From assembly GCA_039812645.1 (NCBI GenBank), contig JBDIAV010000004.1:1187-65186 (forward strand): a DNA stretch of 64,000 nucleotides. Direction: 5' to 3'. The notes beneath the pieces were generated by a model that made no database searches, was not told where the DNA came from, and saw nothing but the letters and a program-made list of their open reading frames with translations. Each line of letters begins with the position of its first letter. Position 1 is the stretch's first letter. Origin of the DNA: Actinomycetaceae bacterium. Its GTDB lineage: Bacteria; Actinomycetota; Actinomycetes; Actinomycetales; Actinomycetaceae. Below, one piece after another: positions 56,670 to 64,000 of the stretch. Made by a program: the position numbers and the translations under genes.

Positions 56670-56748
56670 GTAATTTGCTCTACGATCTGCCATGTAGTCA
56701 GAAGAACTCGTGAGAAGACCGTGTCGTTGGTGTCGAGGGGAGAAGAAG

Positions 56749-57666
56749 TTGGAAGTGATACCCGCGTGGAGTCCGAAAGAGCCATCGCAGTGTCCATGGA
56801 GCCGGAATACCCTTCGCAAGGTTGGTAAGGCGCTTACTTCTGACGAGCCATGGCCCGAAGGACTGCCAACATTCGAAGATGTCTCTCTGTGGTATCAGGA
56901 GATTGTTGGGTTCGTTCAAGCGACCCTCTACCACTTGGATCTTTCTTCCGTTATTGGAGATATCGAAGTGACTATCAACGGCCGAACAAAGACCCATGGC
57001 ACCCTGAAAGAGAAGTTGATTCGGGAGAAGTCTGTTCCGCTCCACAACATTCAAGATGTCGCAGGGGTGCGGTTTGAAGCGGATATGACTCTATCTCAGC
57101 AATCTGGGGTTGTTACTCAAATTGGTGATCATTTCAGAGCAATTGGTTGGAGAGCCAACACGAAGGACTACCGGACTGAGCCAGGGCATGCGAATTACAG
57201 GGCAGTACACATAAGGCTGGAACGGGAATCGGACAAGGCACGTGCAGAGATTCAGATTCGTACGCGCCTTCAAGGTTTGTGGGCGAACGTCTACGAGAAG
57301 CTCGCGGATGCATTTGGACGAGAGATCAGGTACGGGCTGCTACCAGATGACGCCGAGCAACGAGAACTGATCATTGACTGGCAAGATAAGTCTCTTGACA
57401 TCGTTTTTGAAGCAGAGGCGTCAGAGGAGATCATTGAATTGGCTGGAAAACAGATCCTTGAACTCGATAAGGAACTTCAAAGTGAGTTGATCAAACTTGG
57501 CTTCTCTGAGAGAAACGAGATTACTGAGAGACTGGACCAAGATCGTCTTAAGAGGGAGACCTATAAGCAAAATCTGATGGAGCAGCGAATAGAAATAGGC
57601 AACGCTCTCGAAGAAGTCTTCGATACTCTCAGTGGTCTATTATCGAGACAAGAGGGAAAGGAGTGA
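56749..57666 (+). CDS. RelA/SpoT small alarmone synthetase-like protein, probable CapRel-type toxSAS toxin
   Basis: Synthetase motifs RTKTHGTLKEKL, IQDVAGVR, YRAVHI and EIQIRTRLQGLWANVYEKL. No HD hydrolase or regulatory domains. Start uncertain (GTG 56710, TTG 56749 or GTG 56755). Confidence 0.85.
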   Translation: MEVIPAWSPKEPSQCPWSRNTLRKVGKALTSDEPWPEGLPTFEDVSLWYQEIVGFVQATLYHLDLSSVIGDIEVTINGRTKTHGTLKEKLIREKSVPLHNIQDVAGVRFEADMTLSQQSGVVTQIGDHFRAIGWRANTKDYRTEPGHANYRAVHIRLERESDKARAEIQIRTRLQGLWANVYEKLADAFGREIRYGLLPDDAEQRELIIDWQDKSLDIVFEAEASEEIIELAGKQILELDKELQSELIKLGFSERNEITERLDQDRLKRETYKQNLMEQRIEIGNALEEVFDTLSGLLSRQEGKE

Positions 57667-57669
57667 CCG

Positions 57670-57888
57670 ATGCCAGCATTCGTAATTAAGTACCATCGCA
57701 AGAGTGGCGCTTACGAGGTGTTTCCTTTCGAGGACTCGTTCGATGGTCTGCGAAAGCGGTTCGCCTTGGAACGTGAGAATGAAGACCCGGACGTCGAGAT
57801 CGTCAGTATCACCGCTCGAAATCTCGATGACGTCAAGCGGACTCACTCTCGCTACTTCATGAAGGACGGCTCCGGACTTTCAGTGTGA
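57670..57888 (+). CDS. 72-aa protein, probable antitoxin/sensor of the toxSAS
   Basis: 3 bp after the toxin stop, with RBS AAAGGAG. beta-beta-alpha-beta-alpha pattern ending VEIVSI...LDDVKRTHSRYF. Confidence 0.75.
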   Translation: MPAFVIKYHRKSGAYEVFPFEDSFDGLRKRFALERENEDPDVEIVSITARNLDDVKRTHSRYFMKDGSGLSV

Positions 57889-59665: not shown

Positions 59666-59713
59666 AGGAGTGCCCCGGTTTCTGAATCAACTTTCAGAAA
59701 CCGGGGCACTCCT
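59666..59713 (+). terminator. Terminator after gltA
   Basis: AGGAGTGCCCCGGTTTCTGAA-N6-TTCAGAAACCGGGGCACTCCT followed by TTGTTT. Confidence 0.85.
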
Positions 59714-59795
59714 TTGTTTGGCGACAATGTGTAGGCGCTACCTGCCGATCGCACTGGGAGGTTAACCCAGCAATCGGTCGCCAGGTTTCTGGCGT

Positions 59796-60143
59796 TCAGT
59801 TATGTATTTTCTTGGGTGAATACCATGACTGAACGACGAAAGGTTTGCTGATCGACGAGTAGATCAACGAGGCAGGAGCAACCGCAAGCGCTTCGTTGCT
59901 CTGCAGGATGCTCTTAATGTTGGCGCCGGTGGTTCGCGCGTGCGGGATGGCCGTGACGCCGTCGTCGTCCTTTCCAGGTTCCTCGAATCGAACCTGGCCC
60001 TCATCAAACCTTCTCTTAAAGCTTCCCGAAATCTCTTACAAACCCTCCTCAATAACTGCTCTTCCGCCATCAATGGGGATCGCGGAAAGAAAGCTATTGG
60101 AAGGTCCGGGAACGAAATTCAGATACTGGAAGTGCGGCAGCAT
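59796..60143 (-). pseudogene. Possible degraded coding remnant
   Basis: 116-codon frame from ATG 60143 with one in-frame TAA (60036-60038). The downstream half is rich in G/C-ending codons. No recognisable family. Confidence 0.25.
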
Positions 60144-60253: not shown

Positions 60254-60706
60254 ATGGCAGCACTTTCGGAGCTCGTTACGGATGACAGGGTGATTCTTCA
60301 TCAGGTCGTTGGGGATTGGCGCGAGGCAATCTCAGCAGTAGCGGCCCCTCTTATTGCCGATGGGTCGATCCTGCCGGCGTATGTGGATTCGATGATCAAG
60401 GCAGTCGACGAATTTGGGCCGTACATCGTACTGGTTCCACACATCGCATTGGCCCATGCCAGGCCAGATGGGGCTGTGAATCGTCAAGCCATGAGCGTGA
60501 TGACGCTGGCTGAACCGGTCTATTTTGGTCATGCCGAGAACGATCCGGTGTCGATTGTCTTTTGTTTAGCGGCGACCGATAACCGCTCGCACATGGATGC
60601 CTTGAAATCGTTTGTCTCGATCGCGGCGGACTCGCAGCGGGTCGCGCGGCTAACGGCCGCATCTACTGTGACGGAATTTCAACAGATCTTGCGCGAAGCA
60701 GCCTGA
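60254..60706 (+). CDS. PTS EIIA component (UlaC/mannitol-fructose type)
   Basis: DWREAI, GPYIVLVPHIALAHARP and NDPV motifs. ATG 60254 follows RBS AGAAGGGA. Confidence 0.92.
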   Translation: MAALSELVTDDRVILHQVVGDWREAISAVAAPLIADGSILPAYVDSMIKAVDEFGPYIVLVPHIALAHARPDGAVNRQAMSVMTLAEPVYFGHAENDPVSIVFCLAATDNRSHMDALKSFVSIAADSQRVARLTAASTVTEFQQILREAA

Positions 60707-60756
60707 GTTGCCGTCCCAGCGGCAAACAGAACGCGCACATTTACAAGGAGAACAAC

Positions 60757-61065
60757 ATGGCTAAGCGCCTAACAATCTATTTCATTTGCGGTGCGGGCCT
60801 CGGAAGCAGTCTGGCCTGCCAGATGGAGGCCGAGGAAGTCCTCCGCCAAGCCGGTGTCAACGCCAATCTGCAGCACGAGGGGATTTCCTCCGTGCCAGGT
60901 GTCAGAGCGGACATTGTGGTTTCGGCTGAGAACTTTAAGTCCCAGATCGACAAGTACGAGCTGGACCCGTCGATTTCGTTCGTTTATCTACGCAACATCG
61001 TTGACCAGAACGAGATTGGGGAGAAGCTGCTGCCGGTCGTGAGGCAGAAGGAGCAGTCAGCATGA
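60757..61065 (+). CDS. PTS EIIB component (UlaB/lactose-cellobiose-ascorbate type)
   Basis: CGAGLGSS phosphorylation loop. Confidence 0.92.
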   Translation: MAKRLTIYFICGAGLGSSLACQMEAEEVLRQAGVNANLQHEGISSVPGVRADIVVSAENFKSQIDKYELDPSISFVYLRNIVDQNEIGEKLLPVVRQKEQSA

Positions 61066-62354
61066 GTGTGATCAATTGGATCATCTCGAACGTCTTCACC
61101 CAGGCGGGAATAGTTATCGCTCTTATAGCGATGCTCGGTTTGCTGCTGCAGCGTAAAGGCACCGGCGAAGTCATCATCGGTACCTTTAAGACGTTGCTGG
61201 GCTTCAGCGTTCTTGCCGCTGGCTCAGGAATTCTCGTCCAGACGCTGATCATCTTCGGGAAGATGTTTGAAGCGGCCTTCAATATGACGGGTATTGTCCC
61301 GAGCATCGAGGCAGTGAACGGATTCGCCACCAATGATCTTGGCCTGGGAGGCCAGATCGCGTTGGCCTTCCTCGGAATCTTCATCGTGAACATCCTGCTG
61401 GCGCGCTTTACCAAGTGGAAGTACATCTTCCTCACGGGGCAGGCGATTCTCTGGATGGCCACGATGACGGTGGTGTTTGGCTACGCGGCCGGACTGCGTG
61501 GCGCGTGGCTCATCGCCACAGCGAGCTTGGTGGGTGGCTTCTTTGCCGTGGCCATGCCAGCTCTCGCGCAGCCGATCGTCCGGAAGATTACCGGCAACGA
61601 TGCCATCGCTCTGGGACACTTCTGCACCGTTGGTTACCTCTTTGAAGCCGGGGTTGCCTGGTTGGTGCGTAAGCGCAACGTGGAGAAGCAGCCGTCGGTC
61701 GAGGAACTCAAGCTTCCTCGCTCGTTGGAGTTCCTGCAGGACACCTACATGTCCCTCGCCGTCGTCATGATTCCTCTCTACCTCATCACGGCCGGTTTCG
61801 CAGGCCCCGAGGTAGTTGCCGAGGACGCCGGGAGCCTCAACTACATGATGTTTGCCTTCCTGCAGGCTATTCAGTTCGTTGTGGGCGTCTATGTGCTCAT
61901 GGCCGGTGTACGACTCCTCCTGGGAGAAATCGTCCCCGCCTTCCGCGGCATCTCGATGAAGCTTGTGCCCAACGCCAAGCCCGCACTCGACTGCCCGGTT
62001 CTGTTCCCGCACAGCCCGAATGCCGTCATCGTTGGTTTCATCACCACAACGATCGGCTCGGTGATTGCGATGTTCACGCTGCCGCTCATTGGTTTTGCGG
62101 TGATTGTTCCGGGCATGCTGACGAACTTCTTCGCCGGCGGTACCGCGGGAATCTTCGGAAATGTTGTAGGAGGCCGCCGTGGCGCAATTATCGGTGGAGT
62201 CGCGCACGGTCTCTTCATCACGTTGCTACCAGCGCTGCTGGTGACCACGTTCCTCAGCCTGGGTTTCCCCAGCCTGTCCGCAACTGACTCCGACACCATC
62301 GTGGCCGCGTTGTTCTTCGCCTACGTCGTCGGTCCCATCATGAAGGCGTTCTAG
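61062..62354 (+). CDS. PTS ascorbate-family EIIC (UlaA/SgaT-like)
   Basis: GTFKTLLGF, IFLTGQ, IALGHF, FVVGVYVLMAGVR, PAFRGIS, PALDCP, FFAGGTAG.FGN and DSDT motifs. Confidence 0.92.
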   Translation: MSVINWIISNVFTQAGIVIALIAMLGLLLQRKGTGEVIIGTFKTLLGFSVLAAGSGILVQTLIIFGKMFEAAFNMTGIVPSIEAVNGFATNDLGLGGQIALAFLGIFIVNILLARFTKWKYIFLTGQAILWMATMTVVFGYAAGLRGAWLIATASLVGGFFAVAMPALAQPIVRKITGNDAIALGHFCTVGYLFEAGVAWLVRKRNVEKQPSVEELKLPRSLEFLQDTYMSLAVVMIPLYLITAGFAGPEVVAEDAGSLNYMMFAFLQAIQFVVGVYVLMAGVRLLLGEIVPAFRGISMKLVPNAKPALDCPVLFPHSPNAVIVGFITTTIGSVIAMFTLPLIGFAVIVPGMLTNFFAGGTAGIFGNVVGGRRGAIIGGVAHGLFITLLPALLVTTFLSLGFPSLSATDSDTIVAALFFAYVVGPIMKAF

Positions 62355-62364
62355 GGAGTAAACA

Positions 62365-62799
62365 ATGGGATTCTTCAGAAGGAAAAAGTCTGCTGTCACG
62401 CCGCAGCCCGCCGATTCGGCGCCGGCGTCGAGTCCGGCGAGTGGGTCCGACGACGACGGCGCCGCGCCCGGCGTACCAACGCCCGGCGTACCAACACCCG
62501 TCGCGGGTGATCTCACCCCGGAAGGTGGCCTCACCCCGGAAGAACGCGCGGATGAGCTGGACAAGCTCGCCGATGCAGCGCAAAGCCGCGGCGAGATCGA
62601 CCAGGCAATCGCGTACTACGAGGAGAGCCTCGCAGCGATGGAGCGCTTTGGCCCCGCCTACAACGGGCTCCTCACCCTCTACAACACGAAGCTGTCTGAG
62701 AGCGCTCATGCGAAGGACAACGCGGCCATTGAAGGCTGGACCAGCAAGTTGGACCAGCTCATGGATCTGTCCAAGCGCATTATGCGGTCAAAATACTGA
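62365..62799 (+). CDS. Hypothetical protein with Pro-rich linker and TPR-like helical C-terminus
   Basis: Own RBS (GGGAG), 10-12 bp gaps to both neighbours, helical ELDKLADAAQSRGEIDQAIAYYEES region. Confidence 0.75.
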   Translation: MGFFRRKKSAVTPQPADSAPASSPASGSDDDGAAPGVPTPGVPTPVAGDLTPEGGLTPEERADELDKLADAAQSRGEIDQAIAYYEESLAAMERFGPAYNGLLTLYNTKLSESAHAKDNAAIEGWTSKLDQLMDLSKRIMRSKY

Positions 62800-62811
62800 A
62801 AGGACGTACCT

Positions 62812-63666
62812 ATGTACCAATCAATGATTCCTATGCTCGAGGAAGCGACGCGTCTGGGCTATACCGTTGGCGCTTTCAACGCTCACAATCTGGAGATGGT
62901 TCCGGCTATGATCGGTGCCGCTCGCGATGCGGGCGCTCCCATCATTATCCAGATTTCTCCGGGAACTGCCCGTTATGTGGGGATGAAGAATCTGGTAGCC
63001 GTGTGCCGCTCTATGGCGGAGGAAGACATCGTTGATGTAGCTCTCCACCTCGACCATGCAACGAATCTCGATGATATTCGCGACGCGATCAACGCCGGGT
63101 TCTCGTCGGTGATGTTTGATGGTTCGGGTCTTCCGTTCACGGAGAACGTGGCTATCTCGCGGCGAGTCATCGAATTCGCGCACAAGCGGGGAGTTTCGGT
63201 GGAAACCGAGATTGGAACCATCGGCGGAACAGAAGAAGGCATTAGCCACGAGACCGGGAACTACACCCAACCCGACGAGGCGTTGCGTTTCGTCTCCGAA
63301 GTGGACTGTGATGCGCTCGCGATCAGCATTGGCACGAACCACGGCCAGTTCCGTGGCAAGACGAAGCTGAACTTCGAGTTGCTCTCGGAGATCAATGAGG
63401 TCATTGACAAGCCCTTAGTGATCCATGGCGGAACCGGCGTTAACGAGGCCGACTACCCTCGACTCACCGCGAACGGCATCAGGAAGTTCAATGTGGGTAC
63501 CGAACTTCTTGTGAGCTGGACGAACACAGCGAAAGAAACCTTCGGCCAGACCGCGGTGAACTCCTCGCTACGAAACAACATCGTTCCGTGTAACGACGCC
63601 GTGCGCGACGTCGTCGCACACAAGATCGGGCTCTTTATGAAGAGTCCCGTTCCCTCACATTCGTGA
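62812..63666 (+). CDS. Class II ketose-bisphosphate aldolase (fructose/tagatose type)
   Basis: VGAFN, LHLDH, FSSVMFDGS, ETEIGTIGG, IGTNHG, LVIHGGTG and KFNVGT motifs. Confidence 0.94.
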   Translation: MYQSMIPMLEEATRLGYTVGAFNAHNLEMVPAMIGAARDAGAPIIIQISPGTARYVGMKNLVAVCRSMAEEDIVDVALHLDHATNLDDIRDAINAGFSSVMFDGSGLPFTENVAISRRVIEFAHKRGVSVETEIGTIGGTEEGISHETGNYTQPDEALRFVSEVDCDALAISIGTNHGQFRGKTKLNFELLSEINEVIDKPLVIHGGTGVNEADYPRLTANGIRKFNVGTELLVSWTNTAKETFGQTAVNSSLRNNIVPCNDAVRDVVAHKIGLFMKSPVPSHS

Positions 63667-63674
63667 TGACGGTG

Positions 63675-63713
63675 GGTGGTTCCCGGAGATCCGCAACGAT
63701 CCCGGGAACCACC
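63675..63713 (+). terminator. Hairpin between aldolase and kinase genes
   Basis: GGTGGTTCCCGG...CCGGGAACCACC, 12-bp stem plus an inner GATC/GATC stem. Confidence 0.6.
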
Positions 63714-63734
63714 TCCCACAATGAAAGGCTTGAC

Positions 63735-64000
63735 GTGTATGCCCGAGCATTGGTGCTCATAGCTGGGCTTCCCGGCACCGGAAAGAGCCGCCTGTCCCAG
63801 CTCGTTTGTGAAGCCCTCGGTCCTTTGACAGAGATTTCTATCGATCCAATTAAAGAATCGACCTGGGATAGGGAGGGGTTCGACTCGCTGGAAGAGAAGC
63901 GCATGTTGGACGGGGTCGCACTGTCTCAATTTTTTAGCCTCATCGAACGATCCATGCAACGGTCTGAACGGATTATCGCGGACTACCCGTTGAGCGAGAA
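63735..64000 (+). CDS. P-loop small-molecule kinase (AAA_33-like), 5' part
   Basis: Not in the ORF track. From GTG 63735 (RBS GAAAGG): VYARALVLIAGLPGTGKSRLSQ...SIDPIKES...IIADYP. Open to the window end. Confidence 0.82.
   Translation, partial: MYARALVLIAGLPGTGKSRLSQLVCEALGPLTEISIDPIKESTWDREGFDSLEEKRMLDGVALSQFFSLIERSMQRSERIIADYPLSE

Follow-up and report, generated by a model that had tools for sequence, protein, structure and literature searches.

A seven-gene phosphotransferase, aldolase and kinase operon of an Actinomycetaceae bacterium as a candidate route for a rare ketose

Which substrate enters through a phosphotransferase system (PTS) of the ascorbate family whose gene neighbours are a class II aldolase and a P-loop kinase? 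The question is raised by a locus at the right end of a 64,000-nucleotide stretch from an Actinomycetaceae bacterium (contig JBDIAV010000004.1, positions 1,187 to 65,186; hereafter the window), whose kinase 3' end and last gene were read from the right flank (contig C4 of this genome, G000), past the window edge. The operon comprises seven genes on the plus strand, which encode EIIA, EIIB, EIIC, a small tetratricopeptide repeat (TPR)-like protein, a class II aldolase and, behind a hairpin, a P-loop kinase and a PRD regulator. The order from EIIA to the kinase had been proposed in the initial annotation and is confirmed at the coordinates listed below. In our best explanation the operon is catabolic and inducible and serves a rare ketose, or something close to one, and not L-ascorbate. 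EIIABC would bring in the sugar in phosphorylated form, a second phosphate would come from the P-loop kinase and yield a ketose bisphosphate, and the aldolase would cleave this into dihydroxyacetone phosphate (DHAP) and an aldose phosphate. We infer every one of these reactions from gene content, conservation, catalytic motifs, a sugar pocket unlike that of UlaA and independence from ulaG, all of which are observed. The general logic, from PTS to bisphosphate to aldol cleavage, is quite probable; the explanation taken as a whole, with the P-loop kinase as the bisphosphate-forming enzyme, is evenly poised between right and wrong.

59666..59713, plus strand: intrinsic terminator of the upstream citrate synthase gene (20-bp stem with T tail, z -9.8), the left boundary of the operon
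60082..60127, plus strand: conserved non-coding block upstream of EIIA (invariant run aligned with the loci L005 and, more distant, L006)
60254..60706, plus strand: PTS EIIA of the fructose/mannitol/ascorbate type (PTS_EIIA_2, PF00359, 3e-33; phospho-His68)
60757..61065, plus strand: PTS EIIB (PTS_IIB, PF02302; phospho-Cys11, invariant in 45 homologues)
61062..62354, plus strand: PTS EIIC of the ascorbate (UlaA/SgaT) family (EIIC-GAT, PF03611, 8e-117)
62365..62799, plus strand: small TPR-like four-helix protein, 144 aa (weak TPR Pfam matches)
62812..63666, plus strand: class II (Zn, TIM-barrel) ketose-bisphosphate-type aldolase of the fructose-bisphosphate (FBP) family (3e-88)
63673..63714, plus strand: intergenic hairpin without U tail (-35.5 kcal/mol, z -5.4, 0/200 shuffles)
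63735..64370 (the window holds 63735..64000), plus strand: predicted P-loop small-molecule hydroxyl kinase (AAA_33), 211 aa, over the AAA_33 and AAA_18 cut-offs
64357..66273 (window numbering extended; G000:C4:65543-67459), plus strand: PRD regulator of the MtlR/LicR type, 638 aa, the last gene of the operon

With an EIIC-GAT EIIC, a cysteine-bearing EIIB and a histidine-bearing EIIA, the transporter belongs to the PTS L-ascorbate (Asc/SgaT) family. Its EIIC exceeds the NCBIfam cut-offs of PRK12997 (PRK12997.1-3) and PRK09410, its EIIA is 34% identical to Escherichia coli UlaC, and the EIIC shares 27-31% identity with UlaA and 58-98% with its homologues in related cassettes. UlaA binds ascorbate through T86, Y87, H135, Q139, H194, Q195, D314 and M410 (PMC6048161). 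In an alignment whose single columns are uncertain at 27% identity but whose overall pattern is consistent, I82, E83, Q127, W131 and F187 occupy the positions of T86, Y87, H135, Q139 and Q195, and these replacements are near-invariant in a 58-member clade; equivalents of H194 and D314 are retained, and the M410 column is poorly aligned. The EIIC appears to form a subfamily of its own with a predicted sugar pocket unlike that of UlaA.

The initial annotation saw no canonical L-ascorbate pathway at this locus and would have been overturned, among other things, by ulaGDEF genes just downstream together with growth on ascorbate that depends on the locus. We found no ulaG, ulaD, ulaE or ulaF in the 20 kb to the right of the operon, and that view stands. 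Nor are ula enzyme genes among the recurring neighbours of the 81 kinase loci described below, and UlaG was matched in only 10 of the 45 genomes that carry the cassette (E. coli UlaG as query; many assemblies are drafts). The transporter might instead serve ascorbate in trans, together with unlinked ulaG-, ulaD-, ulaE- and ulaF-like genes: its EIIC is of the UlaA family, and the same genome holds an UlaG homologue (62%) on contig C25 and UlaD, UlaE and UlaF homologues (39-47%) on contig C97. These genes, however, have contexts of their own, ulaG adjoining a major facilitator superfamily (MFS) transporter and PfkB and the ulaDEF-like genes adjoining FGGY kinases; five of the main ascorbate-binding residues differ, with replacements near-invariant in the clade, and an Ula pathway would leave the aldolase and kinase without a role, which together with the scarcity of UlaG makes such an arrangement barely credible. 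Because ulaGDEF are missing downstream, UlaG is found in so few cassette genomes and the EIIC departs from UlaA at most ascorbate-binding positions, L-ascorbate is an unlikely substrate, and this is probably not an ascorbate operon. The E. coli ula regulon (UlaABC) is like it in its EIIC-GAT/Asc transporter, in the same EIIB and EIIA types and in the H194 and D314 equivalents. It differs in its DeoR-type regulator UlaR, in place of a PRD regulator, and in its lactonase, decarboxylase and epimerases, in place of an aldolase and a kinase. Vitamin C transport is the routine annotation for EIICs of the ascorbate family, and this subfamily almost surely carries another substrate. Two other loci of this genome touch on the same families. 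The UlaG homologue at G000:C25:31386-34835 (62% to E. coli), paired with the MFS transporter and PfkB kinase and not with a PTS, may be a non-PTS ascorbate or lactone route, and at G000:C10:639-5719 a split transketolase gene and one for a GntR regulator accompany a second ascorbate-family PTS (EIIC 44% identical to that of the operon).

How conserved is the module? A kinase-anchored scan of GTDB genomes returned 80 loci from Bacillota and Actinomycetota, 81 with this one, in related genomes whose locus counts are not independent events. An aldolase gene lies within 9 kb of the kinase gene in 78 of the 81 loci (the exceptions being two contig ends and one true orphan), and the two genes are directly coupled in several, which bears out the earlier assignment of the kinase to the module. 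Two architectures account for most loci. The ascorbate type (59 loci) has the order PRD regulator, (EIIA), EIIB, EIIC, TPR-like protein, aldolase, kinase, and is found in Bacillaceae, Paenibacillaceae, Enterococcaceae, Lachnospiraceae, Negativicutes and a few Actinomycetota, in which the regulator comes last. The mannose type (16 loci) has the order RpiR, aldolase, Zn dehydrogenase, fused EIICD, EIIA, EIIB, short-chain dehydrogenase/reductase (SDR), (GntR), kinase, and the Zn enzyme can be missing from it (metagenome loci). Mannose-type aldolases nest inside the ascorbate-type aldolase clade in a quick tree with SH-aLRT (approximate likelihood ratio test) support only. If both PTS routes led to a shared ketose phosphate, the pairing of the same aldolase and kinase with a mannose-type PTS and an SDR of the polyol dehydrogenase type would be expected. 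In a check anchored on the TPR-like protein, EIIC was directly upstream in 5/5 cases and the aldolase and kinase followed in the 3/3 with enough contig; the EIIC-anchored plasmid matches above 56% identity that we examined all carried a P-loop kinase. In Streptococcus sobrinus (L081:5041-9597), intact TPR-like, aldolase and kinase genes lie behind a fragmented regulator and EIIC.

The mannose-PTS variant resembles the L-sorbose (sor) operon in its mannose-type PTS, Zn dehydrogenase, SDR and ketose-bisphosphate aldolase; it differs in that its Zn dehydrogenase is 334 aa long and its SDR falls under the sorbitol-6-phosphate dehydrogenase cut-off. L-Sorbose was considered as the substrate of this variant, which L. 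helsingborgensis Bma5 carries, and was rejected: the sorbose phenotype is explained otherwise, by a separate 411-aa SorE-like gene in the Bma5 genome, which stands with a SorC-like regulator. Among the strains tabulated for the species, L-sorbose is positive in Bma5 alone, and D-tagatose is negative in it (PMC4156108).

The aldolase retains its metal- and DHAP-site residues D81, H82, H177, H205 and N227, as do its homologues, and shows the Asp-His pair, two further His ligands and the DHAP-phosphate loop (HG, GGTG, NV.T) of class II FBP-type enzymes. Its identity to YdjI, GatY and KbaY is 33-38%, and it falls under every named family cut-off except that of the broad ketose-bisphosphate aldolase model. 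It scores 255 bits against a GatY/KbaY cut-off of 383 and 241 against 444 for TIGR01858, below the level of an orthologue, and forms a clade of its own in the tree, apart from KbaY, GatY and YdjI. R254 aligns with the DPR-motif arginine of the bisphosphate aldolases 7nc7, 3q94 and 1gvf; all 78 complete cassette aldolases have its equivalent, which is missing from YdjI and from PDB entries 8q57/8q58, which we take to be sulfofructose-phosphate aldolases. Since the DPR arginine presumably holds the distal phosphate, as Arg331 of FbaA does, a ketose bisphosphate is, judged from sequence, the likely substrate.

This agrees with the bisphosphate-type enzyme of the initial annotation; its generalisation from class II membership does not always hold, E. 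coli YdjI being a class II FBP-family protein annotated as a 1-phosphate aldolase. YdjI shows that a monophosphate substrate is possible within this fold and suggests another route, in which the PTS would yield a ketose 1-phosphate, the aldolase would cleave it directly and the kinase would act on a free aldose or acid, as do gluconokinases, which share the kinase fold. DeoC paralogues recruited to some loci, and ribokinase- or YihV-like PfkB proteins, hint at a non-triose product and would suit this route. Yet the distal-site arginine is invariant here and absent from YdjI, the architecture with an SDR favours a distal phosphate, and the enzyme that substitutes for the aldolase in Sodalis is of the bisphosphate type; we judge direct cleavage of a monophosphate improbable. 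The E. coli ydj cluster (YdjH kinase, YdjI aldolase) is similar in that a divergent class II aldolase and a kinase together serve a rare ketose derivative of long chain, and differs in MFS uptake, a PfkB kinase, a monophosphate substrate and the lack of the distal arginine, YdjI being 33% identical to our aldolase. A complete ydj-like cluster is present in the same actinomycete at G000:C69:1655-13201 (YdjI 64%, YdjL 71%, YdjJ 52% and YdjH 49% to E. coli).

Cleavage of a bisphosphate is also the logic of the tagatose-6-phosphate routes (gat/aga with GatY/KbaY; clusters of PTS, TagK and GatY; LacABCD), which share with the operon a PTS, a second phosphorylation and a ketose-bisphosphate aldolase. 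Our aldolase is 37% identical to KbaY/GatY and has a small residue at the position of the KbaY alanine: G229 is glycine throughout the family, where KbaY and GatY have alanine and Bacillus FBP enzymes asparagine. A small residue here would admit a tagatose-like C4 geometry. The operon differs from the tagatose routes in its separate aldolase clade, the lack of GatZ, a P-loop rather than a PfkB kinase, another EIIC and the extra TPR-like protein.

Which ketose might this be? The class II aldolase fold makes 3S products, so D-psicose and D-sorbose (both 3R) are a poor fit; psicose was among the ketoses listed by the initial annotation. DeoC paralogues of at least four lineages (35-44% alike) have been recruited to loci of the module, mostly in genomes with several deoC copies, and weakly hint at a second cleavage product other than plain D-glyceraldehyde 3-phosphate; sugars of the heptulose or octulose type are worth considering for that reason. 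We suggest as substrate a 3S ketose whose C3/C4 geometry is tagatose-like and whose chain may exceed six carbons, as in sugars of the D-manno-heptulose or D-glycero-D-manno-octulose type, and any single named sugar would be an improbable choice. Hamamelose is a further possibility, for which no supporting paper was found in the literature covered. Mediterraneibacter hominis (L041:10748-17233) carries a near-identical second copy of the aldolase and kinase genes (98% and 93%) behind those for another PTS of the Asc family, accompanied by a GmhA-like isomerase and a PRD regulator; as a single case, this GmhA was not weighed for the substrate.

We consider it unlikely, though well short of negligible, that the operon represents at once a so far undescribed route for a rare ketose of plant type with more than six carbons (heptulose or octulose) or a branched sugar, a new class of P-loop sugar-phosphate kinase and a TPR-like accessory subunit of EIIC. 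It is a real, conserved variant of PTS-kinase-aldolase ketose catabolism, with textbook logic, and amounts to an orphan pathway rather than a new principle. A literature search found no description of it, most subscription journals lying outside its coverage. The EIIC subfamily is spread over soil bacilli, enterococci, gut Lachnospiraceae and a few actinomycetes, with a sister form in Klebsiella. If the substrate were identified, metabolic models of bacteria from the gut and from plants would gain a carbon source, the 2rhm-like kinase family would have its first substrate, and it could be tested whether some PTS depend on a small soluble accessory protein. The operon is a good target for enzyme discovery rather than a surprise.

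The kinase gene most likely starts at GTG 63735, behind a GAAAGG ribosome site, and not at 63663. Its structure model (predicted local distance difference test, pLDDT, 95) is closest to the uncharacterised protein 2rhm (Z 20.2, root mean square deviation 2.3 over 179 aa), followed by PSTK, Kti12, polynucleotide kinases, chloramphenicol phosphotransferase, PFK-2 and gluconokinase. The Walker A motif GLPGTGK, D37 at the place of the general base behind strand 2, and R120-x-x-x-R124 in the lid are all invariant and, with the NMP-kinase fold and Z values of 12-20 to such folds, are those of P-loop hydroxyl kinases; D37-x-x-K40 is likewise invariant and matches the D-x-x-R of PSTK. Further invariant basic residues (R130, H131, H134, R163 and R167) would suit a small anionic acceptor. 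The protein is in all likelihood a hydroxyl kinase; fold and motifs do not reveal its acceptor. A weak Zeta_toxin Pfam match, and automatic cluster names of the form "zeta toxin / UDP-GlcNAc kinase", might suggest a zeta-like toxin with the TPR-like protein as antitoxin, and the kinase could also be an unrelated passenger. The match covers only residues 5-29, the P-loop, and is below cut-off, zeta structures rank low against the model (Z 10.6-10.9), and there is no obligate small partner of the kind found in epsilon-zeta systems. With the kinase occurring without the TPR-like protein in all 16 mannose-type loci and tied to the aldolase in 78 of 81, toxin and passenger are both highly implausible.

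Whether the kinase adds the second phosphate, as had been proposed, is less clear. Ketose 1,6-bisphosphates usually come from PfkA- and PfkB-type enzymes, and within the same pathway such an enzyme (dedicated in some operons, housekeeping here) may form the bisphosphate and leave the P-loop enzyme an ancillary part: rephosphorylating free sugar, dealing with a side product or with sugar that enters in another form, or control. Several findings favour that division of labour and weigh against a bisphosphate-forming P-loop kinase. A YihV-like PfkB (closer to YihV than to YdjH) is added in 22 of the 75 PTS loci and a PfkA-like kinase in three Bacillota loci, with the P-loop gene kept in each case; PfkA-like and P-loop kinases occur together in a Klebsiella/Sodalis sister operon; and this genome has a housekeeping PfkA that could do the C1 step. 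The attenuator-like hairpin in front of the kinase gene points to a kinase level below that of the aldolase, and no kinase of the 2rhm-like family, including 2rhm, has a known substrate. Against the ancillary role, the P-loop gene is constant while PfkA and PfkB are optional, and 40 of the 59 ascorbate-type loci, this operon included, have the P-loop enzyme as their only linked kinase. We regard the ancillary role as possible, if on balance doubtful. Given the PfkA- or PfkB-type kinases present in many loci and in the sister operon, we weigh a second phosphorylation by the P-loop enzyme, as the initial annotation proposed, equally for and against. In a Peptacetobacter metagenome-assembled genome (L065:8998-10506) the P-loop kinase is fused in frame to PfkB, and the two are separate neighbours in L103.

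The uncharacterised sister operon of Klebsiella and Sodalis has the order PfkA-like kinase, EIIB, EIIC, aldolase, 89-aa protein, EIIA and P-loop kinase. It is similar in its EIIC (57%, with the same Q/W/H/F/D pocket), in the Klebsiella aldolase (42%, with the same glycine and arginine) and in remote homologues of the kinase and the small helical protein. It differs in having no adjacent PRD regulator and in a kinase about 30% alike over the N-terminal part, and in Sodalis a class I enzyme annotated as tagatose-bisphosphate aldolase replaces the class II aldolase.

Hairpins of unrelated sequence occupy the aldolase-kinase junction in many lineages; none is present where both genes abut (Enterococcus gilvus). 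The one at 63673..63714 is probably an attenuator or mRNA stabiliser and not a hard stop, and the kinase belongs to the operon and is probably made at a lower level than the aldolase. RNA contigs from four runs cover all operon genes; none of those listed spans the hairpin, inside which they break, as expected at a perfect inverted repeat, and they are uninformative on co-transcription.

What does the small TPR-like protein contribute? It consists of a hydrophobic and basic N-terminus, a disordered linker and four helices, with most of residues 58-143 modelled at pLDDT above 90, and a fold search with the model returned generic TPR/MIT matches only, with E values above 0.06. Its gene is present in 59/59 ascorbate-type loci and 0/16 mannose-type loci, although both hold the aldolase and kinase, and the protein therefore belongs with the transporter and not with the enzymes or as an antitoxin. 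We propose it as a candidate accessory of EIIC, which would act at the membrane side. A complex prediction of EIIC, EIIB and residues 50-144 of the TPR-like protein scored 0.42 against 0.00 for the best control, with runs agreeing in at least 74% of contacts and a partner pLDDT of at least 77; scores at 0.60 or under occurred in 7 of 80 solved complexes and in the two mismatches that passed, and this weak prediction was not counted as evidence. The linker-coding part of the gene carries an exact 15-bp tandem duplication (62466-62495) and a second short repeat (62533-62545), and linker length differs among close relatives.

The initial annotation noted no regulator directly upstream, which is literally true and misleading: the cognate PRD regulator lies downstream, its start overlapping the kinase stop by 14 nt, and occupies the same position in L005, L006, L035 and L036. 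It contains HTH_11, Mga, two PRD, an EIIB-like part and EIIA_2, the architecture of MtlR/LicR/ManR PRD activators, with H211, H323, H382 and H557 present as candidate phospho-His sites and the EIIB-like part lacking the usual cysteine. As in its family, the regulator would be dephosphorylated as EIIAB pass phosphate to the incoming sugar and would then switch the operon on.

To its right, the operon is bounded by this regulator gene, followed by a convergent dapD. Within the operon, the EIIC start overlaps EIIB by 4 nt. The block at 60082..60127 may be a promoter or activator site; a search upstream of EIIA for a sigma-70 consensus gave no match. The spacer between gltA and EIIA (59720-60030) exceeds that of the close relative L005 by about 250 bp and does not align with it; the extra DNA is possibly an insertion or gene remnant. 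Close relatives are in Ancrocorticia (Actinomycetaceae) records. The kinase was detected in 9 of 301 genomes of Actinomycetaceae, and in two congeners without it the gltA-dapD interval is filled by 34-40 kb of other DNA, which together identify the operon as a patchy accessory module in a variable slot. Further upstream, between dapC and gltA, a stretch of lower G+C content (about 49-54%) holds at 56710-57888 a small alarmone synthetase-like gene with a RelA_SpoT domain (PF04607, 3e-13), followed by a 72-aa open reading frame; the two look like a toxSAS/CapRel-type pair.

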